A stretch of DNA of 64,000 bases from Pseudomonadota bacterium (GTDB taxonomy: Bacteria > Bdellovibrionota > Bdellovibrionia > Bdellovibrionales > SG-bin7). The position numbers and the translations under genes were made by a program. Numbering within the stretch: position 1 is the first letter of the stretch; every line of letters starts with the position of its first letter. Of this stretch, positions 5,096-52,189 are shown piece by piece. A model generated the notes under the pieces. It worked only from the letters and a program-made list of their open reading frames with translations. It ran no database searches and was not told where the DNA came from. The stretch covers positions 1 to 64,000 of the forward strand of contig JAWXAY010000033.1 in NCBI GenBank assembly GCA_034439715.1. The letters run 5' to 3'.

Positions 5096-6198
5096 GTATC
5101 AATTTTTTCGAGGAGAAAGCCAAAATCTTCAAGTGAGGAGATTTTAAATATTCCTTCAACTACTCTTCTTCCTTCAAGTGAGCGTCTTACTTGCACAATA
5201 TTTTGTAGGCTTAGAAAAATCAGTCTACGGATTGCTTGTAGTGACCACTGCGGTGCGCCCATTTGAATCAACATTTCTAATCTAATCAAAGCTTGATTGG
5301 GGTTGTCGGCATGGAGTGTGCCCAGACTTCCGCTGTGGCCCGTGGCGAGCGCCATCAATAAATCTTTAGCTTCTCCGCCCCTAACTTCACCCACAACTAG
5401 TCTGTCTGGTCGGAGACGCAGAGATTCCTTTACCAAGTCTACCTGACCTATCTCATCAAAAAGATTTTTTTGACCCGGACGAGAAACTAGTTTGGCAGAA
5501 ATCAGGTTGGGAACTCGAAGTTCATTGGTGTCCTCGATGATGATTACGCGCTCATTAGGAGGAACCTCTACCATAACGGAATTGAGTAGTGTGGTTTTGC
5601 CGGATCCCGTTGCTCCAATAATGATAAAATTTTTACGGCACCTAATTAAATCAGAAAGAATCACGTGTTGAGTGGACGAAACCATCTCGAGATTTTCTAG
5701 ATCAGTGAGGGACCAAGTGCTGGGATTAAGTTTTCTGAGTTGGACAATGGTTTGCTCAGAAATCGGAGGTACTACGATCTGCACCCGAAAACCCTGCCAC
5801 TGGGCTCTAGCAAATGGCTCCACAGAACTGGGGTTGATTCCACATTCATGATAAAGTTTTTGAGTAAAGAGATGAAAAGTCGCGGGCGTTAGAAAAGTGT
5901 CCTCATATTTTATCAGCGTCCCTAATTTTTCAAACCAAATTGAACTGTGTCCATAAATAATAATTTCTGTGATTTTATCGTCTGTGATAAGTTGATCAAG
6001 TGGTCCATTTGAAAAAAACTCACTTTCGAGGCGACCGCGAAACTCCCTATTCTTATCGAGTGTCAGTTGATGGATAAAATTCTTAATACTGTCATGAATG
6101 CCTTGTTCGGTTATGTTAATGTGCGAAGTCACATCTGTAATAGGAAGCCCATTTATTTTTTCTTGAATTTGTAGAGTGAGATTTGAAAGGTTAGTCAT
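5092..6198 (-). CDS. cpaF: Tad pilus assembly ATPase CpaF/TadA
   Basis: Walker A GATGSGKTT, IIIEDTNEL, LRLRPDRLVVGEVRGGEA, GHSGSLGTLHA; ATG at 6198 overlaps the cpaC stop. Confidence 0.9.
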   Translation of the reverse strand: MTNLSNLTLQIQEKINGLPITDVTSHINITEQGIHDSIKNFIHQLTLDKNREFRGRLESEFFSNGPLDQLITDDKITEIIIYGHSSIWFEKLGTLIKYEDTFLTPATFHLFTQKLYHECGINPSSVEPFARAQWQGFRVQIVVPPISEQTIVQLRKLNPSTWSLTDLENLEMVSSTQHVILSDLIRCRKNFIIIGATGSGKTTLLNSVMVEVPPNERVIIIEDTNELRVPNLISAKLVSRPGQKNLFDEIGQVDLVKESLRLRPDRLVVGEVRGGEAKDLLMALATGHSGSLGTLHADNPNQALIRLEMLIQMGAPQWSLQAIRRLIFLSLQNIVQVRRSLEGRRVVEGIFKISSLEDFGFLLEKIDT

Positions 6199-7513
6199 TT
6201 GAGTTATTCCAGCTCGGTGGCAGTTGGTTCTCCTGATTATCTTCTGGTTTATCTTCTGAAAGTTCATTTTCGGGAAAAACAACTTCTGGCGTAACAAATA
6301 TCACAAGTTCAGTTTGTCTTTCTTTGTAACTATCCGAACCAAATAAACGCCCCACGAGCGGAATGCTGCTAAACCCAGGAAGTCCTTCTCGGCTATTTCC
6401 TGATTCGGAAACGATAAGTCCCGAAAGCGCGATTGTGCGTGTTGAAGTTAGGTCAAAGTGGCTGCTAATACGATTAGTTTGAAGCGCAGGGATACCATCG
6501 AGACTGTTGTCGTGATCGAGAGATGAAACTTCGGTTTCGAGATTAATGCTCATTTTACCGTTATAGTCGGCTAGGGGCCTTAACTTCACTTGCACGCCGT
6601 ATTTCTTCCAGGAGATGTCCTTTGTGCGAATATTGATAATTCGAATCGGAAATTCACCGCCAGATAAAAAAGAAGCCTCTTTGCCGCTTCGGCACAACAA
6701 AGTTGGTGAGGCCAACACTTTGCCCCAGCCGTTCTTTTCTAAAAATTGAAAATCAATATCGGTGATGTTTTTTTTGAGAGCGACTTTCGGCAGCAATTGT
6801 GCTGAGTAAGAGATGGGCCACTTAATTCCGATGTCCATAAGATGTGACTTGCTGATCGAAGCTACAACTATTTTAGTTCTCACCATGGGTGCAGTTTCGA
6901 TCTCACTGTCAGATGTCGAGACAGAAATTCCGTAAGGCCCCATAACGTTGCTCAAGGACACTCGTAAATCCTTAGAACCTTTCGCCACTAGAATTTCTGG
7001 TATTTTTTCGATATTAATGGATGAAATGGGTAAGTGGTGGTTTCGTAGTAGCTTTTTTAAATGGGCCTGAACCTCGTCCTTAATCAACGGGTGAATCGTG
7101 GCGCTGAATCGCAAAAAATCAGCGGGGATTTTTAGCTTTGCAATTAAATCCCAGTCTGAAGTTCGTAATAGTTCTCCCTCAATAAATAGAGCTTTCGAGC
7201 TGGGATTAATTGACAGACCTTCCATGGTCCCGATGATGGCTACAAGATTCTGATAGTGAATATATTTTGCGGGCTCTAGAACGACCACGGGTGTGTCTTC
7301 ACCTCCAATCGTGATAAACGTATCGCCCTCATTTTTTCCACGCATGAGAATTCGGCTGCCCAAATCAGTCACCTCAATGGTTTTTTTCGAGTGAGCGTGT
7401 ATTTTTTTATTTTTGGGAGCTTCTAATGTGGTTGTGGCGCCTTTATTCAAAACGATAGTTTTACCTAAACCAATAAGAGGAAATAAAAGCGCTAAAAAAA
7501 AACATATTTGCAT
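6191..7513 (-). CDS. cpaC: Tad pilus secretin CpaC/RcpA
   Basis: Signal peptide; secretin motifs LASPTLLCRSGKEASFLSGGEFP, IPLVGRLFGS, ELVIFVTP. Confidence 0.87.
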   Translation of the reverse strand: MQICFFLALLFPLIGLGKTIVLNKGATTTLEAPKNKKIHAHSKKTIEVTDLGSRILMRGKNEGDTFITIGGEDTPVVVLEPAKYIHYQNLVAIIGTMEGLSINPSSKALFIEGELLRTSDWDLIAKLKIPADFLRFSATIHPLIKDEVQAHLKKLLRNHHLPISSINIEKIPEILVAKGSKDLRVSLSNVMGPYGISVSTSDSEIETAPMVRTKIVVASISKSHLMDIGIKWPISYSAQLLPKVALKKNITDIDFQFLEKNGWGKVLASPTLLCRSGKEASFLSGGEFPIRIINIRTKDISWKKYGVQVKLRPLADYNGKMSINLETEVSSLDHDNSLDGIPALQTNRISSHFDLTSTRTIALSGLIVSESGNSREGLPGFSSIPLVGRLFGSDSYKERQTELVIFVTPEVVFPENELSEDKPEDNQENQLPPSWNNSND

Positions 7514-19498: not shown

Positions 19499-20587
19499 GT
19501 GCTCAAGACTACTGCTTTAAAAGAAGAACACCAAAAAATGGGCGCCAAGATGGTAGAGTTTGCCGGCTGGCTCATGCCCATCCAATATGAAGGGGTTGGC
19601 CCCGAACATAAGAACACTCGTGAAAATATCGGGGTATTTGACGTTTCTCATATGGGCGAGATTTTAGTATCCGGTCCCCGAGCGCTCGAAACTTTGCAAT
19701 GGACAACTACCAATGATGTCTCGAAGCTCCTAAAAGGTCAGGCGCAGTATTCACTTTTTCCAAACGCCAAAGGGGGCATTGTTGATGACCTCATTGTTTA
19801 CTGCTTAGAGCCCGCTAATAGTTATCTCTTATGTGTTAATGCCTCTAATACCAACAAAGATTTCAAATTTCTTCTTGATAACAATCGCGGCGCAAAGCTT
19901 GAAAATCAGAGTGATCAGTGGGCTCAAGTCGCCTTACAGGGACCCAAAGCTTTACAACTTGCGAATGAGCTACTTGGTGAGGATTTTGCTATACTCCCGA
20001 GTTTCAATTTTAAAGAAGTAAAATTTAAGGGCAACACATGTTTTGTCGCGCGTACGGGGTATACTGGCGAAGATGGTGTTGAGATTTTCATTCCTTGGAA
20101 ATTATCAATAGATTTTTGGCAAAAAACATTTGAGATGGGGACGAAACTGGGTGCGAAGCCTGTGGGCTTGGCTGCGCGCGACACTTTGCGAGTAGAAATG
20201 AAGTATCCTCTATACGGTCAAGAAATCGACGACGACACTAATCCCTATGAGGCTGGCTTGGGCTGGGTAGTAAAACCACAGGCTAAAGATTTTTTGGGCA
20301 AAGATAAAATGCTGTTAGGTAAAGAGGCAGGATTAAAACGAAAATTGATCGGTTTTAAACTTTTAGAGCGGGGAGTTCCACGCGGGGGTTACGCCTTGTT
20401 TTCATTTGACAATCGCGAAATCGGCAAGGTAACAAGTGGGACTATGTCGCCGTCTTTGGGTGAGGGAATTGGCGTTGGTTATGTTGATATTAATTACGCC
20501 AAAGAGGGCACAGAGATTTTATTGGATATTCGGGGCAAAAAATTTAAAGCGAGAGTTGTTAAAACCCCATTTGTGACGAAGAACTAA
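19499..20587 (+). CDS. gcvT: Glycine cleavage system T protein
   Basis: FAGWLMPIQY, FDVSHMGE, ARTGYTGEDG, GLAARDTLR. Confidence 0.97.
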   Translation: MLKTTALKEEHQKMGAKMVEFAGWLMPIQYEGVGPEHKNTRENIGVFDVSHMGEILVSGPRALETLQWTTTNDVSKLLKGQAQYSLFPNAKGGIVDDLIVYCLEPANSYLLCVNASNTNKDFKFLLDNNRGAKLENQSDQWAQVALQGPKALQLANELLGEDFAILPSFNFKEVKFKGNTCFVARTGYTGEDGVEIFIPWKLSIDFWQKTFEMGTKLGAKPVGLAARDTLRVEMKYPLYGQEIDDDTNPYEAGLGWVVKPQAKDFLGKDKMLLGKEAGLKRKLIGFKLLERGVPRGGYALFSFDNREIGKVTSGTMSPSLGEGIGVGYVDINYAKEGTEILLDIRGKKFKARVVKTPFVTKN

Positions 20588-20599
20588 GGAGTCAAAGAG

Positions 20600-20986
20600 A
20601 TGGCATTTCAAGTTCCTGAGGAATTTTATTATACAAAAGATCATGAGTGGGCTCAAGTGGATGAGAATATTGTGACGGTGGGAGTTACTGATTATGCCCA
20701 GGATGCTTTGGGTGAAATAGTTTACGTTGAACTTCCTGAAGAAGGACAAAAAGTAAGTCAAAATGAAAAATTTGGTGTTGTAGAGAGTGTTAAAAGTGTC
20801 AGTGAGCTTTACTCGCCAGTCTCTGGAACGGTTATTGAGATCAACAATGCTCTCAACGACAATCCAGGAGTGATGAATGATGATCCTATGAATGAAGGTT
20901 GGCTAATTCGAATTGAAATGGACACCGAAAAAGAGTTGGCTGTCCTGATGAAAGCACCGGATTATCGTAAGCTGACAGAGAAATAA
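20600..20986 (+). CDS. gcvH: Glycine cleavage system H protein
   Basis: YTKDHEW, GVTDYAQ, lipoyl motif VESVKSVSELYSP. Confidence 0.97.
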   Translation: MAFQVPEEFYYTKDHEWAQVDENIVTVGVTDYAQDALGEIVYVELPEEGQKVSQNEKFGVVESVKSVSELYSPVSGTVIEINNALNDNPGVMNDDPMNEGWLIRIEMDTEKELAVLMKAPDYRKLTEK

Positions 20987-22829: not shown

Positions 22830-23562
22830 GCATAGGAACTAGCTATCTGTCTAAAATAAAACGCTCATGTCGGTTAAATTTGCTTTGGTATGGCGACGAA
22901 GTCAGGAATGTCAGATACTCCGCCGGCATAGTTCCGCTGCTCATTGAAGGAAAAAACACTGGTTTGTTCATTAGTTTAGAATTCTTCAGATTAGCATTTC
23001 AAGATAGTAGGTAAATTATGTTTTTATAGGCTTTATTAGGTGAAAACTGACTGCCTAGGACTCGGATCTCCCCATTTTTGATAACACCTGCCCCCCGAGC
23101 CAAAATTTTGGCCAAAAGCCCCGAAAAATCCTGCTAATTTATTTAGTGAAACTCAAAGCCCATCTGCGGAGGGGCGCGGGCAGGGTGGAGTGCCGGCGGC
23201 GAGGTCTCAAGGCCCAAGTGCGTGAGTATCTTCTCGATGATTTTTTTTTCGAGAATGGCCGCAATAATCTTGGCGTCACCCCCGCAGTTGCCGCAAGTGG
23301 TGACATCGATCTGAAAGACCCGCTTCATGAGCCTACCCCAAGAGATCTGTCTGGCCGAGGCGGGTGGTTTGGGTTCAGTTTTATCTAAAACGTCATTGGG
23401 AGTTTTATTTTTGACCACAATTTTGGGTCGAGCCTTCGAGTTCGGAGCAAATACTCCGTGGTAACGGATGATGTGCATGCGGGGCGGTGGCACAAGGCTA
23501 GCTAGTTTTTCGATAAAATCCTGTCGCCCCGACCATGTACAAACTCCGGGTTTTATTAACAA
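22830..23562 (-). mobile_element. IS91/ISCR-family transposase 3' remnant with candidate oriIS
   Basis: ORF 23143-23562: LASLVPPPRMHIIRYHGVFAPN, WGRLMKRVFQIDVTTCGNCGG..KILTHLGL; no N-terminal part; minus-strand TTCCTATGC at 22838-22830. Confidence 0.7.
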
Positions 23563-29666: not shown

Positions 29667-29694
29667 TAAAGTAGGTGTCCTGTAATTCCGATAA
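29667..29694 (+). promoter_or_regulatory. Sigma28 (FliA)-like promoter
   Basis: TAAAG-N15-TCCGATAA directly upstream of the giant gene. Confidence 0.65.
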
Positions 29695-29703
29695 GTTGGG
29701 TAT

Positions 29704-32700
29704 ATGGGACGTCTCTGGACCGGGCTTTCAACTAGCCATTCATTCTACTACTTGTTTCACTTTTCCTTGTTGCAGCCAATGCAGTTCGCGGCCTTCTTTT
29801 CTGTGGTTTTTCTGGCCAGCACTTTTCAAAACCAGGCACAAGCAGCTTGCGGCGGTACCGTGCGTACATGGGACTCAGGAGCAGGCAGCGCCAACTGGAG
29901 TGCCGCTGCCAATTGGTCGGCGGATGATATCCCCAATACCACCACTGAAGACGTGGTTATTGTTTCGGGAGCGCAAATCCCTAATTTTGATACCGCTTAT
30001 TCAGTGGGTTGTCTCGAGATTCAATCAGGAACATTAACGGCTAACAGAAACAACAGAGTTCTTACTATCAATGGCGACTATTTTAGAAACCTCACCGCCA
30101 ATTCATTTACTGTGGGTTCAGCTAGTTTTACTTTAAAAATGGGTGTACCTGGCTCACCAGTACAAACTCTTGAGAATTACGACCTTCTAGAAATTTTAGA
30201 AATTGGCAATAACAACACCGTTACAAGTACGAAACCTTTTAGGATGAATACTCAGCTGCAATTCACAGCCGGTTGGACGGGTACCTTAAAACTCAATGGC
30301 GATTTAGATTATAGAGGGGGTGCTGTTACCATTCCCGCCGGAGGTACAGTCATCATAGGTTCCGGTGTGACTTGGGCATCTACTGCTAATATTACTGTAG
30401 CGGGCACTTTAAAAATTATGCCAGGTGCCACTCTTAAATTTAATACCGGCCGCACGCTTACTGTTAATAATAATGCCTCGCTAATTATAGCAGGCGCTTC
30501 AGGAAATTCGGGTAAAATTTCAGGACAAGATTTTAACGACAGTTGGACCTTTAACATGAACGGCATCCTTAACGCCGACTACTTTCTGTTATCGCGCATG
30601 GCAGTTTCTGGATTGAATATTGGGGCCACTGGCATTGTGCAAAAACTCGATAACGGAGAATTTCATTACCCACAATTAAATGGCGATGCCATAAGAGTCG
30701 CTAACGGCGCTACGTTGCCTGCGACTATGAATCAACTTGGCTTTTCAAATGATGCTAATTTGGCTGGGACAAAAAACTTTAACAGCGCCTATACCGGCAC
30801 TGCTATTACTGTTAATAATTGGACAGGAAATGGTAATACCGCAAATGAACGAGCCGATACCGGAAATAAAATTCTTTGGGGTGCGCAAGGGGGCACTAAA
30901 TTATCTCTTGTGGATTTTTCAAACCCACCAGCAACTATCAATCAAGCGACCACAGTTACCGGCGGCACTTTTTCTTTTGCTCTCAATCAGGCATCGACTC
31001 TCACTAATATTACTAGCATTAAAATTTCAATGTTGGGTACGGCTACAACTTCGGATATCGATTATATAACGGTATACGCAGATGCTGCAGGCAGTATGGA
31101 TTGCGTACTCACTGTTGGTACTGACACTGTTATAGCGAATCAGGTTTCACTCAGCAGTTCACCCCTGAGCTATACAGTTGCTATTGCCTCGGGAGTTGTC
31201 ACAACTTCTAGTGACACTGCTAAACACTGTATTCATGTGCAAGTTAGAACTACCGGCACCGCCCAAGATAATAAGACTATTCGTCTTGGCGTTCAGGGTA
31301 CAAACGACGTGGTTAACAGTCAGGGCTATACCTTTTCAGATTCCGCAGCACCGCCTGTTTTGGCTTCTCCAGATATTGTTATAGTCGGTGATGTAATTAG
31401 AAAGTGGCAAGGAGACATAAGTACGGCTTGGAGCAATGCTGGAAATTGGTCAGGTGGAGTGGTTCCGACCGGGACTCGTGACTGCCAAGTGGGAGTCGGT
31501 ACTAACGTAGCCGTTCTCGATGCTACCGGAACTTGTCAGGTCGCTAATTTTTTAACGGGGGGAACGCTCAACTTTAATGCCACAGGGCGAATCTTGAATC
31601 TTACTGGTGGAATAAATATTGACCCTGGTTTTATATTTCAAACTCCCACAAATGTTGGCACTCTCAATTTTAGTGGTGCTGTCGCTGAAGGCGTTTCGAT
31701 TGCGACCCCAGTACCGGCCCATGTGACAATTAATAATACGGGAGCGGCAGGCAATGATTATGTAGAAATCAACGGCGATACTACTATCGGCGATGCCTCT
31801 GGCAATGGGGGGAATGTCACAGTCACTAATGGCACGCTTCGTGTAAATGCTCCTTATACCTTGACGATCAAGGGCAATCTCACTTGCGCGGCACTTGCAG
31901 GAAACGGAATAGAAATCGCGGCCGGCGCTACTTTAAAGATGGGAAACAATAGAACCATAACTATCAATAACGGCTGTACGTTTACGCTTGTGGGAAACAT
32001 CAATCAAAATGTTGTGGTTACATCTGACAACATTGCAAACTCTTACAATGTTATCGTCGCAGCGGGTGGTATTATAAGTGCGAATTATTACAAATTTGAA
32101 AACCTAGGTACGCTGGGATTAAATATTGCCGGTACGATCAATGCCACCAACCATTTACAAAATGGTACATTTAGATATCCCAGAGGCAACAATGGAAAAA
32201 TGTTAGACCTTGACGTGGCTGTTCCTACAAATTCAATGGACAATATGACATTTACGTCGGGCGGGTCGTCAGCCACGGGCACCACTAATATTGATACGGC
32301 CACCAATGGTGCTGGCGGCACACTCACATTAAATAACTATACTGGTGATTTAGCGGGACCGTTTTTTGATAATGATCCCACCTATTTACTAGCTTGGTTG
32401 AACGCCACAAATACCATAGAAATCACACAAGAAGCGACTTCACCCGTCACGCTTAATGCGGGTTCTACTTATAATATGGGGCGCTTTGGTTTCAAACAAG
32501 CTATGGCAGGAGCGTCTTTTGTAAACACGGATATTACAAGCCTTCGCTTGACGTTAACTGGTACGGCTTCCAGTAATGATATTTCAGACGTCAAAATTTA
32601 CTACGACGCTACTTGTGCTGGTGCCGGCGGTGTACTTGTTGATAGCGGAGCATTTTCGGGTAACCCGGCTTCTCGTGTATTTACTTTTACGGCGGGCGAA

Positions 32701-35700
32701 GCCACGGTCAATGCTGATACTTCAACCCCACCAAAAAAATGTCTTTATGTTGAATATGTTATTGCTTCGGGAGCCACTGATGGCAACACCGCAGGGGTGG
32801 AGTTAGTTTTAACCACTGATTTTGCGAGCTCGGCGGGTTATGCGGTGGACTCAAATACTCTACCACCTCTTTTTCTGGGATCACCTGGTACAATTTCTGG
32901 AAGTTCCTCTGTAAATTGGGTGGGCGGTACAAGCACCAATTGGAATTTAGCTGCCAATTGGAGTCCTGCTACCGTTCCTACCAGCGGCATCAGCTGTCGG
33001 ATTGATAGCAGCGTTAGGAATCCTACCATTGACGTAACAAGCGGTAATGCCACTTGCAAAACTGTCATCATCGGAAACGGCACGCTGAATATTTCTACGG
33101 GGTACAAACTTTCTGTCTATGGTGGTTATACCAATACTGGTACGTTAAACTTGGCGGGAACTGCCACTCTTGAATTTGCGGACGGGGGGGTTTTATCAAA
33201 TCAAACAATTACAAGTAGTACGACCATTGGCAGTATTAGTTTTGCTAAAACTGCTGGTGGAAACGTCAACATCGGCTCAAGTGCTCTAACAGTTACATCG
33301 CTAGTAAATATGCAGGCTGGGCAAAACTTTGATTTTTTAATACCGAGTGGAAAAAATCTGACGTTTAGCGGAGGAGCCACTGTTAGTGCAGGAACCTTTA
33401 CCATTGCCGCTGGTGGTACGCTGACCATGGGCAATGCCACGGCTTTTACGGTTGGTGCCAATGGAACTTTAATTATGATTGGTAGTTCCGGTGCCAACTT
33501 AGCCACTATGACGGGTGGAAGTAATAAATTTAACGCTGTTATCAATGGAACAATCAAGGCGCAGTACTATAAGTTTGATCATCTATCATCAGCAGGAGTT
33601 AGTGTTGAAAGCGGTTCAACCATTGACGTCACTTACCATTTGCAAGATGGTAGTTTTACATATCCTGTCGACGCTTCGACCACGATGCTCTTTTTAAAAC
33701 GCCAAGTTCCAACTGATACAATGGACAACACCAAGTTTGATAAAGGCGGCTCCGCGGCAGCGACGCCAAAGAATATCAACACGACAGGTGCTGCGGCGGG
33801 TACTCTCACCATGAGTGGTTACTTAGGCGATATTGCTGGCGATGCCTTTGAAGTTGAAGGGTCTTATACAATTAGTTGGGGCGCAGGTGTAAATACCATA
33901 AATCTCACTCAAAGTGCTGCCACCGCACTTGGTTCAGTTACTGCTCCTTCGACAGCAAATTTGATGGGGCGTTTCGGCTTTAAACAAACTCTCGCGGGCG
34001 CGTCTTATAGCGATGCTGCACTTACAACTTTAAAACTAACCCTTAAAGGAACGGCCATAGCAGCAGATGTCAGTGAAGTTCGCATTTATTACGAGACAGA
34101 TTGTAACAGCGCTGGTGGTACACTTATCGGTTCGGGTATATTTAGTGGATCGCCGGGTACCGCAACATTTAATCTTAACCCTACTGATGCGATTATTCCC
34201 TTCAATGCTACAACACCACCTACCGTTTGCATTTATGTCCAATACGATATTCCATCTGGTGCCACAAACGGAAACACCGTAGGGGTCGAGGTTGCCATCA
34301 ATAGTCATGTCACCAATGACCAGGCCTACGCCATTGCTGACGCTACACCAGTACCAGTCAATTTAGGCACGGCGATTGCCATAAGTGGTGCGATAAATAC
34401 GACATGGAACGGATCGGTAAGTACCGCTTGGGGTACTGCCGGAAACTGGTCTGCGGGAGTGCCTACATCGACAGTTAATTGTACAATTCCTACTGGTTTG
34501 ACTGTCTGGCCAAACGTAGCAGCAGGAACAATCATTTGTAAGAGTGTAACTTTACAGGGCTCAATGACAATGTCAGCTGGAACTTGGGATGTGCACGGGG
34601 ATTTTATTAATACGGGCACTTTTACAAACTCAGGTGGTGCTTTAAACTTTCAAGGTACTGCTAATCAAAACTTTAGTAGCGGTAGCACTATATTTAATGT
34701 GACCTTTGGAAAAACGGCCGGAACCGTTGCCATTACTGGTGCAAGTGTACCTATTACATCGATCGATTTTACGGGAGGCTCGGCTTACACATTTAAAGTG
34801 AATTCTGGCAGAACGGTGACCTTTACAAATAACGTAACTGTTTTGACTGGTAAGACATTTGATATTTCAGCGGGCACGGTAAGAATGTCTAACGGAAGAA
34901 CTTTTACTATTAATAGTGGTGCGACGTTAAATATGATTGGAACTTCTGCAGTTTTAAATTCTGTCATGACTTCAACTGGTGGAGCCAACGCATTTAATGT
35001 GGTCATTGCGGGAACCATTGCAGCGAGATATTTTACTTTTGACCACTTGGGCGTCGCAGGTGTGGCTATAAATGGAACCGCTACTATAAACGCGACCAAT
35101 CAGTTGCAAGATTGTAATTTTACATATCCCGTAAACAACAATACCAAGTTTTTAACCCTAGCTATTCCCATTCCAGTTGCAACTTTGGACAATTGTAAAT
35201 TTGATTTGGCGGGATCGGTAGCAACAGGAACAAAAACGATTGATGCCTCTGCAGTGACTGGTGGCGCCCCCAACCCAGACTTGACACTTAATAATTGGTC
35301 AGGCGACGCCGGAGGCACCAGCAGCAGTATCAATAGTGGTACCTATACGATCGCTTGGGCGCCGGGACTCAACACCATAAATATCACTCGTGAAGCTGCC
35401 AGCCCCACCACAGTGAACGCCGGCACTACATATAACATGGGCCGCTTTGGCTTCCAGCAAGTTTTAGCCGGTACCTATGCAGATACAGATATAACAACAC
35501 TCAGGCTTTCAACCACTGGAACGGCTGTGGCCTCAGATATAAGTCAGGTCCGAGTCTATTACGATAGTGATTGTAACAACTCAGCCGGAACTCTTATTGG
35601 CACAGGAGCCTTTGCCGGTTCCCCATTAACTAAGACATTCACTTTCTTGGCGGGAGACGCGAGAATTCACTTTAGTGCAACATCCCCACCACTCCGTTGT

Positions 35701-38700
35701 ATTTATGTTGAGATGGATGTTGCTCCGGGTGCCGTTAATGCTCGGACCATAAGTGCAAAAATTGATGTCTCGGCTGATTTGGTAAATAGCCTCGGTTATG
35801 CTGTGGCGACGGCATTTCCTGTGGCACTTGCCACGACTCCCTCTACAATTGTGGGCGCTTCAAATACCACATGGACTGGAACTACAAGTACAGCTTGGAA
35901 TTTGGCGAGTAACTGGACAAGCGGAATTCCCGATTCCACAAAAACTTGCACTCTCGTCAACGTAGCGAACGATCCTATTATCAGTACAGCGACTCAAGCA
36001 TGCAGAAACGTAAGTATAGGTAACGGGATCTTAACAATTAACACCGGTTCAACTCTTCAAGTTTATGGAAACTACGACAATACTTCGGGTTCAGTTACAA
36101 TGAGCGGCACTGGTACTGTTCGCATGATGGACGGCGGAACCGGCAGCGCTCAGACTGTGGCGAGTACCGCCCAACCTATGAATAAATTAACATTTGATAA
36201 AACAACTGGCGGCTCAGTTCGTGTTAATTCTACTATGACAATTACTAATTTGACGATTCCTGCTGGGTCTAATTTCACTTTCCAAATTCCTGCGAGTACG
36301 ACACTGACGTTAACAAATGGTCTCGCAATTCCTGCAGGGACCGTCGACGTGCAAAATGGCGGAACTATATTGATGGCTAGCGGCACTACACTTAGTGTGA
36401 CTGGCGGGACATTTAAAACTTCGGGTGTTAATGATACCTTTGTGCAAAGCTCAGCTAACAAAGGCAAAGTAAGTCGTGTTTCTGGTTCGTGGTCGTTTAA
36501 CGCAACTTCTGGCACCGTCAATCTCACTGGGTTTTGGTTAGATTATTTAGATGCGAACGGTATGCAGATAAATGGCTCCACCACACTTTCAAATTTGAGT
36601 GGCGGTCAGTTTACAAATCTTGCTACGAACGGTAGGGGTATGCAAGTAAACACGAGCGGTGCCGTACCGGCAACCGCCGCAAATGTGGGATTTGAGTGGG
36701 GCGCATTCAATGCGGCAAATTCAGGTCAAAGTTGTTTAGCGGGCACTTATTATACCGTGTACGCAACGGCTTGTGGTGGAAATACAATTACGTTTACAGA
36801 ATGGTGGGGTAATTGGTGGCCAGGACAACAATCATTAGTTGACTGTTCCCCCGACGATCATATTTGGGATTCGGCAGAAGGGGCTTCATGCACCATTAGC
36901 ATGGCGTCGTCAGCTTCACCAGTTTCGCTATTGTCACTGGTTGCTAAACCGTACAATCATGCGGTGTCAATTGAATGGGTAACAGCTTCTGAACTTGATC
37001 ACCAGGGATTTAATGTTTACCGCAGTCTCGACATGTCTAGCGGATTTATTCAAATCAATTCTGAGTTGGTGAGAAACATTATTTCGTCAACGTCGTATAA
37101 AGGAAAATACCGCTTTGTGGATCACGAGGTTGAAAACGGTACTCTCTATTACTATATCATCGAAGATGTGGCTTTTAATGGTGCTAAAGAGAAGCATGGA
37201 CCCGTCAGTGCAAGACCCTTAATAATATTAACGGCTCCGCCGGCTGATCCCAGTGACACTAACTCTGGAACAACAGATCCTAATCCGAACGCAGGTAACG
37301 ATCCCTCGACCGGGCCTATCGCGACACCGGGAATGGTTGACCTCGGGAATGGCGTTCACATTTTAGCGCAAACTAAAAACTCTTTACGTATAGAAATCAT
37401 TCCGCCGCCAGAGACTTGGGCTAATTCTACTTGGAATGCGACTTATAAAACTCTTAAGGTCCCGGGATATTCGAACACGCTAACACCAGGATACCCAGAA
37501 CTTGTGGATAGGACTATTTTAGTTGAGGTCAGTGATCAACATAGTAGTGCTTTGGTTATCAATTCGAGTTTGGTTGAGACCGTTCCTGTTGCCAAAAAAG
37601 TTCAACCAGCACCGAATTGGGTGGCCAATGGTGGTGGCATTCTGCAAGCTTCGTATGCCGAGAATGCGGTCGCTTATAGTGCCGCTGGGTATCAGCCGGC
37701 GACTTATTATTCTTTGGATAGCGCGCTTAAAACTATCGGTGGCAAAACCTACTTAGCTCTAAATGTGTCACCATTTAAATACGATGCTGTTAATCAGCTT
37801 GTAAAAAATTCGAGCAAAATCGTACTTGATATTGCGCTTGATGGTGAACCTATATGGAATGGTCAGCCGCCTACCAGCGATCCGGCACTGTCGCCGTCAG
37901 CTGCAGATGGCGTGTTGCGAATTGGCTTTCGTAGCTCTGGACTTTATGAATTAACTTACAATGATTTTGTCACAGCTAATGTAGATGGTCCATTCGCGGG
38001 ACACGACTCCACTCAATTTCGCATGTATGTACGGGGAGAAGAAATACCCATTAGTATAATATCGACCAACAGTACTTTTTCGAGTGGTGATAAAATAAGA
38101 TATCACGTTGATCATTTGAGAAATTCCGAAGACGATGAAAATGAAGTCGTACTCAGCTCTTATAATGTTCAGAATAGTGCAAGTGCCCCCTTGCGAATGG
38201 ATCACCGGAACGCTGAACCGACAAGTTTTGGTGCTTCACCTGAAGTGGGGTCTTATTATAAAGTAGCAGTGGAGCAGGATGTTGACTTCTATCTGGACTA
38301 TCCATTAGGTCCTGATCAAGATCATTTTTTCTGGAAGCGCATTAAAGCTAACAGAAATGGTAATCGCAATCCCTATCCTACAGCGGCCAAAATGGACATA
38401 CCCATTGATCTTACTCGTTTAGATCAAAATTCGACTAGAAAAGTTTACCTGAGAGTTTATTTAAGAGCTCGAGCTAATATGACTACAAATGCGAGTCACC
38501 ACTTGGGCCTGTATTTAAATAACATCACCTATATGGTCGATGAAAAAGTATTTACCGAAGACAAGCCGACAGTATTAACTTTTGAGTTGAATCCTAACTT
38601 CTTTTTTGACGGCATAAACACGATCAAACTTTTAGCTCTTGGAGACATGGTTCCCGAAAACAATTGGGACATTATAGACATTGATCGCGTTGAAGTCGAA

Positions 38701-40344
38701 TTTGAAGGGTCCCGTTTAGCCATTGCAGACGTTGCCGAATTTACCAACCGGTATAGAGACCAAGCCATTTCCGTGTTTGGCTTTTCGAGCACAAATGTTG
38801 TGGCCTATGATGTTTCCCAGCAGAATAAACGGGTATCGATTCTAGATAATATTGCTTGGTCAGTGAGTGGCGGACTTAATGATGCCACCTTTGCCACAGT
38901 CAGTAATATTGAGGGCGACATGGGCACTCACTACGTTTTAATAAAAGACGGACAATATAAAAAGCCCACATCACTTTTACTACAAGAAGGCATTTATTTG
39001 CCTCTCAAATCTTCAGCGCAAGGAGCGGACTTAATTATTGTCGGTCCAAAATCTTTGCTAAGTTACACCGAAAAACTAGTCAGTGTTCGTGAAGGTGATG
39101 GTCTTCGTGTTGTTAGTGCGCCGCTGGAGCAAATCTATGCCGAATTTTCAGACGGTTTGAACACCAGTCGCGGTGTTAGAGATTTTATTCTCTACGCCTA
39201 CAATAATTGGACATTTCCCAAACCTAAATACTTACTAATTATTGGTGATGCAACATATGATCCCTTGGATAAACTTGGTTATGGCCGCGCTGACAAAGAT
39301 AGCATGACGCCATTGGCATTGGTCAGCGGAATCCATATTGACTTTGGCAGTGATAATTACTTTGTGGCGAATCCCGATGGTACAGACATTCCAATAATGT
39401 CTGTTGGACGAATTCCAACCTCTCAGCCAGATTTCTTAGAAGGCTATATCAATAAAATACTAGCCTACGAAGTCGGAAGCTCAGCGCCATCCACTGGGTA
39501 TAACTCGCACAATGCCGTTTTTATTAATGATAAGCCTTCATTTGGAGACAATTTCTCAAAAGGCGTTGATGAATTGTCCGCGGCGCTCTATTCATCAAGA
39601 CCAGATTACACCTCAACAAAACTAAATCGTGAGTTATACACAGACGTCAATTTCAAACAAAAAATTATTGACGAATTTAATTCAGGTCCGTTTTTAATGA
39701 CTTACCTTGGACACGGAGCTGAAGAACGCTGGATGTCCGATAGTTCTGGAAATCCTGTTTTTGGCAATACTGAGGCAAAGGCATTAACAAACGCGCGCCT
39801 ACCAATTGTTCTCGCCCTGAACTGTTTGAATTCCTATTTTTACGATCCAGATCCAGACCCTTCTTGGTCAGGACTGGGCGAAGAACTTATATTAAATGCC
39901 AATGGCGGTGCTATTGCATTTTGGGGATCTACAGCCATGACAACGCCTGGAACGCAAAAAAAGTTAGCTACGTCATTTATTAATGAATTCAGCGCTGAAA
40001 CCACTTTGGCAGTTCACGATGTTCGCTTAGGCGACATCTTGAGCCGCGCCAAACAAGTGCTCGGTTCCGACGAAAACTCTAAGGATACTATCCGCAGCTG
40101 GGCCCTTTTAGGCGATCCTTCTATGAAGTTACCGAGTGATGTTTTTAAAGCTCAAAGCGTTGATCAATCCTCAACAAGAAAGAGTAAAGGCTTTTTATCT
40201 TGCGGTAGTATCGACATTGGCTCAAGTGGCGGTAGTGGTCCAAATTGGCCCGCGCTTTTTGAAATGCTATTGCTGGTAGGATTTATTATGTTGTTGAGGA
40301 TTCGCTTGGTTCTAGTGCCCGCCAAACAACGAATCAAACGATAA
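29704..40344 (+). CDS. Giant repetitive surface protein with C-terminal C25 (gingipain/PorU-like) cysteine peptidase and membrane anchor
   Basis: Signal ending AQA (alternative start ATG 29779); five ~500-aa repeats; FN3-like PVSL..EWVTASELDHQGFNVYRS; C25 motifs KYLLIIGDATYDP, VGRIP, TYLGHG, LNCLN, LLGDP; CGSI-linker-TM-basic tail. Confidence 0.88.
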   Translation: MGRLWTGLSTSHSFYYLFHFSLLQPMQFAAFFSVVFLASTFQNQAQAACGGTVRTWDSGAGSANWSAAANWSADDIPNTTTEDVVIVSGAQIPNFDTAYSVGCLEIQSGTLTANRNNRVLTINGDYFRNLTANSFTVGSASFTLKMGVPGSPVQTLENYDLLEILEIGNNNTVTSTKPFRMNTQLQFTAGWTGTLKLNGDLDYRGGAVTIPAGGTVIIGSGVTWASTANITVAGTLKIMPGATLKFNTGRTLTVNNNASLIIAGASGNSGKISGQDFNDSWTFNMNGILNADYFLLSRMAVSGLNIGATGIVQKLDNGEFHYPQLNGDAIRVANGATLPATMNQLGFSNDANLAGTKNFNSAYTGTAITVNNWTGNGNTANERADTGNKILWGAQGGTKLSLVDFSNPPATINQATTVTGGTFSFALNQASTLTNITSIKISMLGTATTSDIDYITVYADAAGSMDCVLTVGTDTVIANQVSLSSSPLSYTVAIASGVVTTSSDTAKHCIHVQVRTTGTAQDNKTIRLGVQGTNDVVNSQGYTFSDSAAPPVLASPDIVIVGDVIRKWQGDISTAWSNAGNWSGGVVPTGTRDCQVGVGTNVAVLDATGTCQVANFLTGGTLNFNATGRILNLTGGINIDPGFIFQTPTNVGTLNFSGAVAEGVSIATPVPAHVTINNTGAAGNDYVEINGDTTIGDASGNGGNVTVTNGTLRVNAPYTLTIKGNLTCAALAGNGIEIAAGATLKMGNNRTITINNGCTFTLVGNINQNVVVTSDNIANSYNVIVAAGGIISANYYKFENLGTLGLNIAGTINATNHLQNGTFRYPRGNNGKMLDLDVAVPTNSMDNMTFTSGGSSATGTTNIDTATNGAGGTLTLNNYTGDLAGPFFDNDPTYLLAWLNATNTIEITQEATSPVTLNAGSTYNMGRFGFKQAMAGASFVNTDITSLRLTLTGTASSNDISDVKIYYDATCAGAGGVLVDSGAFSGNPASRVFTFTAGEATVNADTSTPPKKCLYVEYVIASGATDGNTAGVELVLTTDFASSAGYAVDSNTLPPLFLGSPGTISGSSSVNWVGGTSTNWNLAANWSPATVPTSGISCRIDSSVRNPTIDVTSGNATCKTVIIGNGTLNISTGYKLSVYGGYTNTGTLNLAGTATLEFADGGVLSNQTITSSTTIGSISFAKTAGGNVNIGSSALTVTSLVNMQAGQNFDFLIPSGKNLTFSGGATVSAGTFTIAAGGTLTMGNATAFTVGANGTLIMIGSSGANLATMTGGSNKFNAVINGTIKAQYYKFDHLSSAGVSVESGSTIDVTYHLQDGSFTYPVDASTTMLFLKRQVPTDTMDNTKFDKGGSAAATPKNINTTGAAAGTLTMSGYLGDIAGDAFEVEGSYTISWGAGVNTINLTQSAATALGSVTAPSTANLMGRFGFKQTLAGASYSDAALTTLKLTLKGTAIAADVSEVRIYYETDCNSAGGTLIGSGIFSGSPGTATFNLNPTDAIIPFNATTPPTVCIYVQYDIPSGATNGNTVGVEVAINSHVTNDQAYAIADATPVPVNLGTAIAISGAINTTWNGSVSTAWGTAGNWSAGVPTSTVNCTIPTGLTVWPNVAAGTIICKSVTLQGSMTMSAGTWDVHGDFINTGTFTNSGGALNFQGTANQNFSSGSTIFNVTFGKTAGTVAITGASVPITSIDFTGGSAYTFKVNSGRTVTFTNNVTVLTGKTFDISAGTVRMSNGRTFTINSGATLNMIGTSAVLNSVMTSTGGANAFNVVIAGTIAARYFTFDHLGVAGVAINGTATINATNQLQDCNFTYPVNNNTKFLTLAIPIPVATLDNCKFDLAGSVATGTKTIDASAVTGGAPNPDLTLNNWSGDAGGTSSSINSGTYTIAWAPGLNTINITREAASPTTVNAGTTYNMGRFGFQQVLAGTYADTDITTLRLSTTGTAVASDISQVRVYYDSDCNNSAGTLIGTGAFAGSPLTKTFTFLAGDARIHFSATSPPLRCIYVEMDVAPGAVNARTISAKIDVSADLVNSLGYAVATAFPVALATTPSTIVGASNTTWTGTTSTAWNLASNWTSGIPDSTKTCTLVNVANDPIISTATQACRNVSIGNGILTINTGSTLQVYGNYDNTSGSVTMSGTGTVRMMDGGTGSAQTVASTAQPMNKLTFDKTTGGSVRVNSTMTITNLTIPAGSNFTFQIPASTTLTLTNGLAIPAGTVDVQNGGTILMASGTTLSVTGGTFKTSGVNDTFVQSSANKGKVSRVSGSWSFNATSGTVNLTGFWLDYLDANGMQINGSTTLSNLSGGQFTNLATNGRGMQVNTSGAVPATAANVGFEWGAFNAANSGQSCLAGTYYTVYATACGGNTITFTEWWGNWWPGQQSLVDCSPDDHIWDSAEGASCTISMASSASPVSLLSLVAKPYNHAVSIEWVTASELDHQGFNVYRSLDMSSGFIQINSELVRNIISSTSYKGKYRFVDHEVENGTLYYYIIEDVAFNGAKEKHGPVSARPLIILTAPPADPSDTNSGTTDPNPNAGNDPSTGPIATPGMVDLGNGVHILAQTKNSLRIEIIPPPETWANSTWNATYKTLKVPGYSNTLTPGYPELVDRTILVEVSDQHSSALVINSSLVETVPVAKKVQPAPNWVANGGGILQASYAENAVAYSAAGYQPATYYSLDSALKTIGGKTYLALNVSPFKYDAVNQLVKNSSKIVLDIALDGEPIWNGQPPTSDPALSPSAADGVLRIGFRSSGLYELTYNDFVTANVDGPFAGHDSTQFRMYVRGEEIPISIISTNSTFSSGDKIRYHVDHLRNSEDDENEVVLSSYNVQNSASAPLRMDHRNAEPTSFGASPEVGSYYKVAVEQDVDFYLDYPLGPDQDHFFWKRIKANRNGNRNPYPTAAKMDIPIDLTRLDQNSTRKVYLRVYLRARANMTTNASHHLGLYLNNITYMVDEKVFTEDKPTVLTFELNPNFFFDGINTIKLLALGDMVPENNWDIIDIDRVEVEFEGSRLAIADVAEFTNRYRDQAISVFGFSSTNVVAYDVSQQNKRVSILDNIAWSVSGGLNDATFATVSNIEGDMGTHYVLIKDGQYKKPTSLLLQEGIYLPLKSSAQGADLIIVGPKSLLSYTEKLVSVREGDGLRVVSAPLEQIYAEFSDGLNTSRGVRDFILYAYNNWTFPKPKYLLIIGDATYDPLDKLGYGRADKDSMTPLALVSGIHIDFGSDNYFVANPDGTDIPIMSVGRIPTSQPDFLEGYINKILAYEVGSSAPSTGYNSHNAVFINDKPSFGDNFSKGVDELSAALYSSRPDYTSTKLNRELYTDVNFKQKIIDEFNSGPFLMTYLGHGAEERWMSDSSGNPVFGNTEAKALTNARLPIVLALNCLNSYFYDPDPDPSWSGLGEELILNANGGAIAFWGSTAMTTPGTQKKLATSFINEFSAETTLAVHDVRLGDILSRAKQVLGSDENSKDTIRSWALLGDPSMKLPSDVFKAQSVDQSSTRKSKGFLSCGSIDIGSSGGSGPNWPALFEMLLLVGFIMLLRIRLVLVPAKQRIKR
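29869..36830 (+). repeat. Five protein-level repeats (spacing 512, 504, 496, 489 aa), the last incomplete
   Basis: W-x-G-x2-ST-x-W-x4-NW-type motif at nt 29869, 31405, 32917, 34405, 35872; recurring MGRFGF(K/Q)Q, GTA-x-ASDIS, PP-x2-C-x-YV blocks. Confidence 0.85.
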
Positions 40345-48080: not shown

Positions 48081-48620
48081 ATGAAATCAAAACAATTGTC
48101 ATTTTTCAAAAAACTAACACTTGAGCATGGTGGGACTTTGGGAAAGGGTAAACGCAAGGGTGCGAGACCGATCTCGACGAAACACCCCATTCACCTTGTT
48201 TATCGGGCTTCTAAAGCTAGAGCGAAGCTCTCTCTTCTAAATTTCTCTCGACGAATAGACAAAATTCTTTCTCAACAGGCTCAAAAGTTTGGCGTTTCGA
48301 TTTACGAAAAGGCTAACTCTGGTAACCACCTTCACCTCTTAATTAGAGGTAAAAAGCGAGTGGGAATTCAAAAATTTTATATTTCTACGACAGCGCTTAT
48401 AGCACGCCTCGTGACAGGTACAAAAAAAGGTAATAAGTTTGGGAAATTCTGGGATCACTTAATATTTTCTAGGGTGCTCACCTCCTGGAGTCGTGAATTT
48501 TTGGATTTGAAGGATTACCTTGTACAAAACACACTAGAGACTTTAGGCCTTGTGCCCTTTAGGGCACGGCTGCGGCACGGAGCGCGGCATACGAACTTGG
48601 CGAGATCAAATTCAAGTTAA
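48081..48620 (+). mobile_element. Y1 (HUH) transposase, IS200/RAYT-like
   Basis: PIHLVYR, HUH motif NHLHLL, KFWD, FSR, candidate catalytic Tyr in DYLVQN; hairpins upstream. Confidence 0.65.
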
Positions 48621-48912: not shown

Positions 48913-49302
48913 ATGAATAAATCGTTAAGAACAGGCACGCTTGCAATTACTTTTTTGGTTTTGTTGGCATTTGGCTTTCAAAACTGTGCCGAAAAACCAT
49001 TGGAAATAAACCTTCAAAACCAGGGTAGTAATGTCCCTCTTAAATTGCTTTCTGATTGTGACGTTATCCCTGGAAATACTTCCCAGCTTCCGTTTTCAAG
49101 CTGCGGTGTTTATGATGGTTCGAATCAGGTAGTTTGTTCCTGTAGCCATACTAGCCAACGCTTAATAGAAAATTTCTTTACTTCGAGCGGAGATAGAGAA
49201 CATTGGCTCTCAGTTTACCCAAACAATACTATTTCTTATAATGGGCCGACTCAATACACAAACACCGGGCTATTCAAATTCATGGTTAAATACACCTATT
49301 GA
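48913..49302 (+). CDS. Small lipoprotein with FQNC lipobox
   Basis: [12 protein letters not shown]; Cys-containing mature part; possible sigma54 element TGGGAATACAAATTGCA at 48823-48839. Confidence 0.7.
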
Positions 49303-52148
49303 TAACTTTCCATTGGTTCACATGAGCAATTAAAATTTTTATCGCCGTAAGCATTGTCGACGCGTGAAACTGGTGGCCAGTATTTGTGCTCGCGTAGCCA
49401 GGGTTTCGGAAAAGCAGCCACCTCGCGAGAGTAGGGGCGATCCCATGTCGAGCGCAACAATACACCACTCGTGTGGGGCGCATTCCTCAGGGGATTGTTA
49501 TTGCGAGGCATTTGACCTGTCTCCACTAACTTAATTTCTTCATAAATACTAATCAGTGCATCACAAAAACGATCAAGCTCTGGCAGCGACTCACTCTCCG
49601 TAGGTTCAATCATAAAAGTGCCGGGTACGGGAAACGACATAGTCGGGGCATGAAAGCCATAATCCATGAGACGCTTTGCCACGTCATCGACTGAAACATC
49701 AGTCGCGTTTTTAATGGGACGCAAATCAATAATACATTCGTGCGCAACTAAACCATTCTTACCTTTGTATAACACCGGAAAATAGCGATCGAGTCGATTC
49801 GCCATGTAGTTGGCATTAAGAATGGCGATTTCAGTGGCCTCGCGCAGACCTTCGGAGCCCATCATTTGAATAAATGCCCATGATATTGGTAGAATTCCGG
49901 CACTGCCCCATGGCGCTGCTGACACTGCGGATGTTCCTGTCTTCGGGCCACACTCGGGCACCACAACGTGCGAAGGCAAAAAAGGCGTTAAATGTTTAGC
50001 CACACCGATTGGCCCCATGCCGGGTCCGCCTCCACCATGAGGAATGCAAAAAGTTTTATGGAGATTTAAGTGGGCGACGTCCGCACCAAATTCAGCCGGC
50101 CGACATAAACCCACAAGCGCGTTCATGTTAGCGCCATCCATATACACTTGCCCGCCGTGATCATGTACGATTTTGCAAATGTCCTTTATGCTTTCTTCAA
50201 ACACACCATGAGTAGAAGGATAAGTAATCATAAGTGCCGAAAGATTTTTTTGATTTTCTTTGGCTTTATTTTTTAAATCTGCCACATCTACATTTCCGCT
50301 CGCATCACAAGCTACCACCACGACTTTAAATCCAGCCAGTACCGCGCTGGCTGGATTAGTTCCATGAGCCGAACTAGGTATTAAACAAATGTTTCTATTT
50401 TTTTCTCCACGCGATAAGTGGTAAGCATTAATAATCAACAAGCCCGCATATTCGCCCTGCGAGCCGGCATTAGGTTGGAGCGACATAGCCGAGAATCCAG
50501 TAATGTCGGCGAGCCACTTTTCAAGTTCTAAAAAAAGCTGCCGGTAGCCCACGGTTTGTTCCTGAGGAGTAAAGGGATGTAGATTACAGAACTCAGGCCA
50601 AGTGACAGGGTACATCTCGCTCGTCGCGTTTAACTTCATGGTACATGAACCCAACGGAATCATTGATGTTGTGAGTGAAAGGTCTTTGGCTTCAAGCCGG
50701 TGTATGTAGCGCAGCATTTCCGTTTCTGAGTGGTATTTATTAAAAACATTTTGTTTTAAAAAGTCAGTTTTTCGGAGCAGATTTGGCCCCAAAGCAAGAG
50801 CACTCTCCACGAGAGATTTCTCGCTCACAGAATATTTTTTACCAAGCGAAAGTGCACTCAAGAGCAAGTTTAAATCACCCAAAGAAATAGATTCGTCAAA
50901 AGAAATCCCAAAACTATTTGGACTGACTTTTCGTAAGTTTATTTTTTGCGCCTCACACGCTTTTAAGATTTCAGATGTTTTTTCAGTTTCTACCGTTAGT
51001 GTATCGAAAAAAACGTCACCCTTAATTTTATAGCCAAGTTTTAGTAGTTCCGCGCGCACAAAAACTGTCATTCGGTGTACCCGTAATGCAATATTTTTTA
51101 AGCCTTGGGGGCCGTGGTAGACCGCATACATGCTGGCCATCACGGCGAGCAGAACTTGCGAGGTACAAATATTACTTGAAGCTTTTTCGCGACGGATGTG
51201 TTGTTCACGAGTTTGCAGGGCAAGTCTTAACGCCAGATGGCCTTCTGTATCTTTTGAAACCCCAATAAACCGACCGGGGACCAGGCGTTTAAACTCATCC
51301 CGAGTCGCTATAAATGCGGCGTGCGGGCCACCAAAACCCATGGGTACGCCGAACCTTTGCGAACTGCCAATGGCGACATCGGCGCCCATTTCAGCAGGGG
51401 ATTTGACCAATGTAATGGCTAAGAGGTCACAGTTCATAATTATCATAGCACCTTGAGCCTTGGCTTTTTTCACACTATTTTCTAAATCTCTTATTTCACC
51501 ATCCAAACTTGTCTGTTGTAAAAAGGCAGCAAAAAGAGGCTCGTTAAAGGCATAAGATTTTGGGTCATCTATAATGAGTTCTAAACCAAGAGGTGTTGCC
51601 CTCGTTTTTAAAACCTCAATGGTTTGTGGAAACGACCTGAGATCAACAAACATTTTTTTTGAAGAATGGCTTTTTGCACTTTTCGCATTAAAACATAAAA
51701 ACATAGCCTCTGCCGCGGCCGTGGCTTCATCTAACAGACTCGCGTTTGCAAGATCAAATCCGGTCAGTTCCATGATCATAGTTTGAAAATTCAAAAGTGC
51801 TTCCATGCGGCCTTGAGAAATCTCAGCTTGATAGGGCGTGTAAGCAGTATACCATCCCGGATTTTCGAGAATATTTCGTTGAATGACAGGGGGCGTGTGG
51901 GTGCCGTAATATCCCATTCCAATATAGGATTTAAAAACCTGATTCTTGCCAGCGATTTCTCGAGCTCGAATAAGAGAGTCGGATTCAGAAAGTCCTTGTC
52001 CTATTTGATACGGCTGCTGGGTTCTAATATTTGCCGGGACAGTTTTGTTGATCAGCTCATCGAGGCTAGTTAGACCCAAACTATCCAGCATTTTTTTTTG
52101 TTGTGCAGCATCGGGTCCGATATGGCGGCGTGCAAATGTAAAAGACAT
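49296..52148 (-). CDS. gcvP: Glycine dehydrogenase (single-chain P protein)
   Basis: [56 protein letters not shown] 52148 with SD AAGGGG. Confidence 0.97.
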
Positions 52149-52189
52149 AAAACCCCTTAACAGAATTAGCATAAAGCTTAGGGAGATGT

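Follow-up and report, generated by a model that had tools for sequence, protein, structure and literature searches.

The 64,000-nt stretch of DNA analysed here (the window) contains a gene for a 3546-aa protein in which a long stalk precedes a PorU-like C25 enzyme, and we tentatively read this protein, at a little under an even chance, as a self-processing 'autosortase' that would cut at Ser2405/Pro2406 and shed or transfer its own stalk. The open reading frame runs from 29704 to 40344 (+) with no internal stop and is real, as an earlier sequence-only reading had held, and the motifs quoted in that reading lie at aa 2584, 2745, 3142 and 3175. The genome is 3.26 Mb in size and 95.7% complete, close homologues of the protein come from sources named Oligoflexia and Bdellovibrionales, which suggests a place in Bdellovibrionota, and the sequencing runs that contain this DNA are labelled microbial mat metagenome. 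The gene is covered by contigs from four runs, without any listed substitution or indel; one run contig (possibly its source) spans it entire, and the architecture is common to relatives. We therefore rejected an assembly artefact as its origin. The run search listed no RNA datasets containing the gene. Synteny with the window neighbours was sought and none was conserved, the neighbours of the gene in relatives mapping to other contigs. Among features of the window assigned by eye, glycine cleavage genes (T, H and P proteins) flank the giant gene on both sides at 19499-20986 and 49296-52172, and the translations suggest a transposase-like remnant at 23143-23562 (-) and a REP-associated transposase-like ORF at 48081-48620 (+).

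The chain opens with a long predicted signal peptide (aa 1-47; 29704-29844, +) that, judged by eye from the sequence, would be cut at AQA/ACGG, and relatives share both the start and the mature A-C-G start. A later start at Met26, as called in homologue P0002, was disfavoured because the Met1 region is kept in the family. Five modules of ~500 aa had been proposed for the stalk; four are present as full modules (aa 52-562, 564-1066, 1069-1562 and 1564-2051; 29857-35856, +; 23-43% identical), each predicted to consist of a right-handed beta-helix of ~330 aa and a beta-sandwich with a conserved Cys pair, whereas the fifth (35860-36903, +) is only ~350 aa long and comprises the beta-helix part without the beta-sandwich. 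An AlphaFold2 (AF2) model of module 4 (pLDDT 89.6) places the right-handed helix before the sandwich. Structure matches to this helix range over Z 12-18 overall, with tailspikes, glycosidases and adhesins (EtpA, PfbA) at Z 16-18 and no clear winner, the sandwich gives weak Foldseek matches to sialidase N-domains, and a module-profile sequence search of solved structures returned only weak partial matches. The helices of the middle (62 sequences) and last (47) modules have no conserved Asp or Glu, and the distal module (47 sequences) keeps E30, D73, D104, E315 and D317 at a level of at least 85%. In homologues the last helix is preceded by two or four full modules, some of these proteins having a different N-terminal part, and adhesion by the stalk is plausible given the predicted fold.

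The stalk ends at a candidate junction, Ser2405/Pro2406-Val, followed by a sorting-tag-like FN3-fold domain that we call the PV domain (aa 2406-2504; 36916-37215, +). We modelled aa 2398-3484 with AF2 (60 rows; pLDDT 89.6, pTM 0.83), and fold matches to this model give the domain order as FN3-like domain, Pro-rich linker, gingipain prodomain, PorU-like domains and catalytic domain. The FN3-like domain noted by the sequence-only reading was recovered, the first 100 model residues having an FN3-like fold (Z 10.1 to 3MPC), and its propeptide-like segment corresponds to a gingipain-type prodomain (aa 2548-2713; 37345-37842, +) that is sub-threshold in Pfam (Propeptide_C25, E 0.004) yet matches in its predicted fold the prodomains of Kgp (Z 16.0, rmsd 2.9, 158 aligned) and RgpB. 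By comparison of the predicted model with PorU 6ZA2, PorU-like N-terminal beta domains follow (aa 2726-3107; 37879-39024, +), and over these and the catalytic domain the match to PorU reaches a Foldseek E of 2.5e-26 (Z 17.5, rmsd 5.7, 589 aligned), with model residues 329-1084 aligning to residues 31-791 of 6ZA2. The catalytic domain (39034-40131, +) matches PF01364 over aa 3111-3476 (E 5.8e-64; 217 bits against a gathering cut-off of 23), its predicted fold lies nearest RgpB (Z 41.2), and the NCBIfam PorU model NF033707 gives 167 bits, far under its cut-off of 420. Its dyad, described earlier as intact, aligns with the GHG His and the next Cys of PorU (6ZA2) and RgpB (His3337, 39712-39714; Cys3374, 39823-39825) and is invariant in the close homologues that cover the site (His 79/79 and Cys 78/78; 81 examined, the rest being fragments). 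With the Pfam match above cut-off, the dyad in register and a PorU-like fold, the enzyme is of PorU/gingipain type, as first proposed. GPI transamidase also matches the model (Z 12.2), and this fold match, taken with the function of that enzyme, hints that the two may be parallel.

We found no Pfam or NCBIfam family above cut-off for the PV domain. The ESM Atlas holds PV-like clusters without a name from Acidobacteriota, Chloroflexota and Pseudomonadota; among clusters that do have one, the closest (0.86), which we treat as no more than a lead, has a T9SS CTD. FN3-like domains of this sort precede CTDs in T9SS-bearing phyla, and among our proteins a PV-type domain ahead of a CTD was shown once, in P0241. 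Of 55 proteins with a C-terminal PV copy, 35 are without C25, and 28 of these 35 end within 60 aa past the domain. The cargo of the non-C25 proteins, one of which comes from a named Anaerolineae, is unrelated (S8, M14, M28, vWA, LTD, GEVED), and their PV domain is mostly preceded by P-T/(A,S)-V, a site read by eye, the sequence logo being mis-registered for several rows. The domain also ends some C25 proteins (P0140, P0197 and P0201), a placement that we liken to that of the CTD at the end of PorU. Judging by these arrangements, the PV domain behaves like a sorting tag in other phyla. Searches of Acidobacteriota favour cassettes because the queries contain the PV domain; the way in which the search was made does not account for its terminal position in the non-C25 proteins. 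That FN3 domains often serve as spacers counts against reading the PV domain as a tag, and a predicted complex between it and the PorU-like body (score 0.00, mark 0.32) was used neither for nor against this reading.

Within Acidobacteriota the PV domain opens a constant tag-prodomain-PorU cassette of ~1000 aa on swapped passengers, and Vicinamibacteria-type genomes hold from several to about 16 fused copies. Across five such genomes, C25 lies 1-6 kb downstream in 47 of 53 strong PV matches, and most of the six others are located at the end of a contig or come from long-read assemblies with frameshifts. Once frameshifted and cut loci had been removed from 75, 26 whole genes were left; in within-genome pairs of these, the cassette aligned in 31/31 and the passenger aligned over half its length in only 5/31. 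The junction in these proteins is T/A-V, with T at P1 in 29/32, A at P1' in 30/32 and V at P2' in 32/32. The family of the giant protein forms a third arrangement that is fused, mostly single-copy and equipped with a TM tail. Its junction in the giant protein is S/PV, and in the 55 of 81 close homologues that show the pattern, P1 is Ser (50) or Thr (5), P1' is Pro (33), Ala (19) or another residue (3) and P2' is Val (54) or Ile (1). In all six full-length homologues compared, the PV domain is as conserved as the catalytic domain or more so. Tandem giant cassette genes, with frames up to about 6200 aa, occur at G063:C1:599900-667800 and G119:C9:105000-119000.

According to the portion of PMC4560394 available to us, PorU cuts X/(G,S,A)(V,L,I), for example AEPT/AT and VEGT/SI, and the cargo goes to an amine. 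The Ala form of the junction fits these sites and the Pro form, as in the giant protein, misfits at P1'; Pro at P1' is absent among the PorU sites in that portion, which counts against self-cleavage, and the accessible part of PMC11285876 holds nothing further on specificity. These PV-domain and junction comparisons nonetheless supply a candidate site and a sorting-tag-like domain for the idea, raised by the sequence-only reading, that the enzyme could release or cross-link its own stalk. A single chain contains the parts of a PorU reaction (cargo, tag and enzyme), arranged with the stalk facing outward and the enzyme next to the membrane, and self-cleavage at the junction, with the stalk then released or transferred, is the most economical reading of this order, one that we hold with slightly less than even confidence.

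PV-terminated proteins without C25 show that a trans arrangement exists elsewhere, and the giant enzyme might likewise serve other proteins as a housekeeping sortase, in the manner of PorU or the Chloroflexota form. Its genome has one PV domain and one C25, both within the giant protein, and a search of this 95.7% complete genome for trans cargo found no second strong PV-domain protein, the best other scoring about 14 bits. Strong PV matches in a sample of the phylum likewise fall only in giant or contig-cut frames, and we regard a trans role as very improbable. A plasmid search with the PV domain returned no match.

The C-terminus has no T9SS CTD in Pfam or NCBIfam and bears a TM tail in its place, in line with the missing T9SS signal noted at the outset, and searches of the 95.7% complete genome for T9SS CTD cargo, SprA, GldN and PorV gave zero matches, with a control that responded for PorV only and correspondingly weak blanks for the others. 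The tail (40189-40344, +) is a Cys-containing tripartite signal made up of G-F-L-S-C3500-G, a Gly/Ser spacer, a TM helix and an Arg/Lys tail, a layout that would tether the protein with its catalytic domain near the membrane, as had been supposed. Among 78 homologues with the catalytic end, the Cys is present in 72/72 with a TM segment above threshold; the other six comprise three just below threshold, with the Cys present, and three without the tail. NCBIfam CTERM models gave no match at E up to 10 to the giant tail and those of three homologues, the single CPBP protease of the genome scores 17-24 bits against myxosortase cut-offs of 75-130, GspD is present, and the tail profile has no other good match among the proteins of the genome. 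MYXO-CTERM-type signals have a Cys/TM/basic layout in the portion of 10.1101/2023.06.07.544157 at hand, which mentions neither Bdellovibrio nor C25. The giant chain may reach the surface via type II secretion or act in the periplasm. The tail already gives an anchor, which leaves little evident need for a second anchoring step and counts against transfer by an autosortase.

Several other proteins with related features were seen. The giant-gene genome encodes a CFI-box-CTERM protein above cut-off (C39:5057-6394, L136), and C25 cassette proteins P0101, P0132, P0146 and P0166 of other lineages have CFI-type tails. A contig-cut Gly-rich protein that ends in A-C-G, a TM segment and basic residues (C90:6054-6968, L137) is a possible second Cys-tail protein that misses the tail profile, and a secretin-like match under the GspD cut-off in the window (6191-7513, -) possibly belongs to a Tad/Flp pilus locus.

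Upstream of the gene, a FliA/sigma28-type promoter match, TAAAG-N16-CCGATA (29667-29693, +), ends 10 nt before the ATG. This motif, the sigma28-like promoter of the sequence-only reading, differs by one mismatch from the Bdellovibrio bacteriovorus attack-phase FliA consensus TTAAG-N16-CCGATA, as given in the accessible text of PMC3627812. The genome encodes FliA, and the match is kept in both same-family relatives examined (0 and 1 mismatch). At one mismatch or fewer the motif precedes only 4/22 giant genes with an intact 5' end, and we rejected it as a universal feature of these genes; the corresponding figure for other ORFs is 0/210. For the family of this giant gene only, the motif makes expression in a motile, FliA-controlled phase likely. 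Separately, of the 50 strict FliA-type motifs counted across the whole genome, 13 stop 4-16 nt short of an ATG that starts an open frame of at least 100 codons, against 3% for random positions, and this spacing suggests leaderless or very short-leader FliA transcripts.

A motile-phase promoter would also suit a gingipain-like degradative surface protease that is carried on an adhesive stalk and directed against prey or mat matrix, with the PV domain as a plain FN3 spacer. The combination of prodomain and C25 as in gingipains, the RgpB-like catalytic fold, a beta-helix resembling adhesins and tailspikes, and the Pro at P1' all favour such a protease. It is harder to reconcile with the PorU-like N-terminal domains, which gingipains are without, with an enzyme that adjoins the membrane and is separated from the tip by 2400 residues, and with passenger swaps that break exactly at the junction. 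The giant occurs in only 24 of 251 phylum genomes and is thus not a core predation factor, and degradation would leave the peptide cluster described below unexplained; we consider this explanation rather unlikely.

The genome of the giant gene carries, on a separate contig (C75:21023-28163, L158), an operon for an HprK kinase, PqqD/RRE, a radical SAM/SPASM enzyme, a 62-aa precursor, an S24/S26 peptidase, a nucleotidyltransferase and an ABC-2 pair; genes for a methyltransferase and a GT4 glycosyltransferase come next. Its place on a contig other than that of the giant gene counts against the link between the two. The cluster proper, at C75:22959-28163, contains the LPP-type set of SpI-like peptidase, discrete RRE, HprK kinase, NTP transferase, exporter (ABC-2) and YxxP precursor. 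Across 24 loci, a nucleotidyltransferase (15), a radical SAM/SPASM enzyme (14) and an HprK-like kinase (14) occur near the giant gene. A precursor lies within 4 kb of it in 14/24 unselected loci, or 17/27 once three loci chosen by their kinase are added. Of these 17 nearby precursors, 7 are downstream on the same strand, where five almost abut. Of the 251 genomes in the phylum sample, strong matches to PV occur in 24 and to the kinase in 26, with 23 having both, so that the kinase is found in 23/24 PV-positive genomes and 3/227 others, at thresholds placed post hoc at E-value gaps in the tables and among kin that are not independent; without the 14 genomes behind the kinase profile the table reads 9, 1, 3 and 224 (both, PV alone, kinase alone, neither). 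This association counts for the autosortase reading. C25 of any type is present in 81/251 genomes, 57 of them without PV and only 2 of those 57 with the kinase, so the link of the peptide cluster is to the PV-type giant. The 57 genomes have only small C25 proteins of about 500-750 aa, with as many as 7 matches in a single genome of one family. Within 10 kb of 75 Acidobacteriota cassette loci there was only one radical SAM and one nucleotidyltransferase match, which counts against the link, and one Acidobacteriota genome has two similar peptide clusters with precursors away from its cassettes.

Precursors from 28 loci share a YxxP leader and X-C-N-G...GGRK...C, with a terminal Ser in 27. In the available text of PMC13381572, the LPP peptidase cuts 16 residues past the Tyr of YxxP, and 25 of the 28 precursors have this spacing to the predicted cut. 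The predicted core then starts with L, S, V, T, I or G followed by Cys, an N-terminus that misfits the (G,S)(V,L,I) acceptor preference of PorU and counts against the peptide as acceptor. A core starting A-(L,V), which would mimic the cut site, was dropped because the LPP spacing sets the cut one residue later. As far as the accessible part of PMC6993621 goes, HprK phosphorylates the terminal Ser and hexose addition to pseudomycoidin requires the NTP transferase; the radical SAM enzyme and two Cys suggest, from sequence, a cross-linked product.

The co-occurrence could instead mean that the enzyme acts on the exported phosphopeptide (in maturation, carrier release, degradation or sensing), with the stalk only positioning it and the giant chain remaining whole. 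The tightness of the association and its specificity to the PV-type giant are in keeping with this, as are the nearby precursors in unselected loci and the S24/S26 peptidase domain fused ahead of a signal-like segment in C25 cassette proteins P0035, P0235 and P0237. The cluster, however, has its own LppS-like leader peptidase with the Ser, His and Asp motifs (compare the available text of PMC13381572), and peptide processing would leave unexplained the conserved junction and PV domain as well as the up to about 16 cassettes with different passengers per Acidobacteriota genome. We judge it unlikely.

If the protein is an autosortase, its sequence suggests that it would be exported by Sec and then tethered by the C-terminal helix; by analogy with MYXO-CTERM, the Cys would be modified, an Rce1-like protease would cut and type II secretion would carry the chain to the surface. 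The fold of the prodomain points to latency. The C-terminal behaviour of the PV domain elsewhere and the passenger-swap breakpoint would fit recognition of this domain and a cut just before it, after which the stalk would, as with PorU, be transpeptidated to an amine acceptor. At the weakest step, this acceptor would be the phosphopeptide of the co-occurring cluster, with a predicted X-Cys-Asn-Gly start and a phospho-Ser end; such an acceptor would explain why giant and cluster co-occur, and we think it doubtful. In its fullest form the proposal is a T9SS-independent, one-protein sortase with a RiPP anchor, in which the protein's own 2400-residue stalk would be ligated to the N-terminus of a radical-SAM-cross-linked, Ser-phosphorylated peptide, and the peptide, exported by ABC-2 and further modified, would join the stalk to the envelope or one stalk to another. 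We hold this form to be improbable; if true, it would give bacteria a counterpart of GPI transamidation in which the linker is a ribosomal peptide.

To our knowledge, PorU-type sorting has been described only within the T9SS of Bacteroidota, and the literature searched (freely accessible main texts, excluding the PorU structure paper) yielded no description of a fused C25 cassette, of the PV domain or of a C25-RiPP link. The passenger-tag-enzyme cassette would place PorU parts in cis in Bdellovibrionota-like and Acidobacteriota genomes, with no T9SS found, in a covalent display reminiscent of autotransporters, and Ser2405/Pro2406 offers one exact, testable bond. The giant protein is a candidate motile-phase surface structure of uncultured predators, its host being likely predatory. 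A self-ligating cassette that takes passengers of 200 to 4700 residues would also serve as a protein-engineering tool. The tie to the cluster offers a first candidate role for the LPP-like phosphopeptide class, whose function its describers call unknown in the available text of PMC13381572.

The cluster resembles the LPP pathway LppA/B/K/S/D/N of Bacillota (PMC13381572, available text) and phosphorylated lasso peptides (PMC6993621, available text) in its YxxP leader with 16-residue spacing, RRE, HprK kinase, SpI-like peptidase, NTP transferase, exporter and terminal Ser. In addition, it has a radical SAM/SPASM enzyme and two invariant Cys, an ABC-2 exporter where LPP has an MsbA-type one, and a tie to a giant C25 protein; the main text of PMC13381572 has no match for 'C25' or 'radical SAM'. 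The tail shares with MYXO/JDVT/Synerg-CTERM signals an invariant Cys in a Gly-rich motif, then a TM helix and a basic cluster, in a genome with a CPBP protease and GspD. Unlike those signals, it matches no NCBIfam model, Glu often opens its helix, and its genome has one clear carrier and a CPBP protein under the cut-offs.

With the gingipains RgpB and Kgp (1CVR, 4IEF, 4RBM, 5MUN) the giant protein shares the prodomain fold and the catalytic fold; it differs in that ~380 aa of PorU-like domains separate the two, its repeated stalk is N-terminal and beta-helical, and, in place of the Ig-like domain and CTD that follow the gingipain catalytic domain, it has a 74-aa tail with a TM segment. It resembles PorU (PG0026 of Porphyromonas gingivalis; 6ZA2, NF033707) in having N-terminal beta domains, a C25 domain and the His/Cys dyad, and in a junction similar to the X/(GSA)(VLI) sites in the accessible portion of PMC4560394. 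Unlike PorU, it has a gingipain prodomain, a TM tail and Pro at P1', it is without a CTD in a genome where T9SS genes were not found, its acceptor cannot be presumed to be A-LPS, and it holds a candidate substrate and tag in the same chain. The giant protein is thus a member of neither PorU nor the gingipains, and it most likely works like PorU, in cis.
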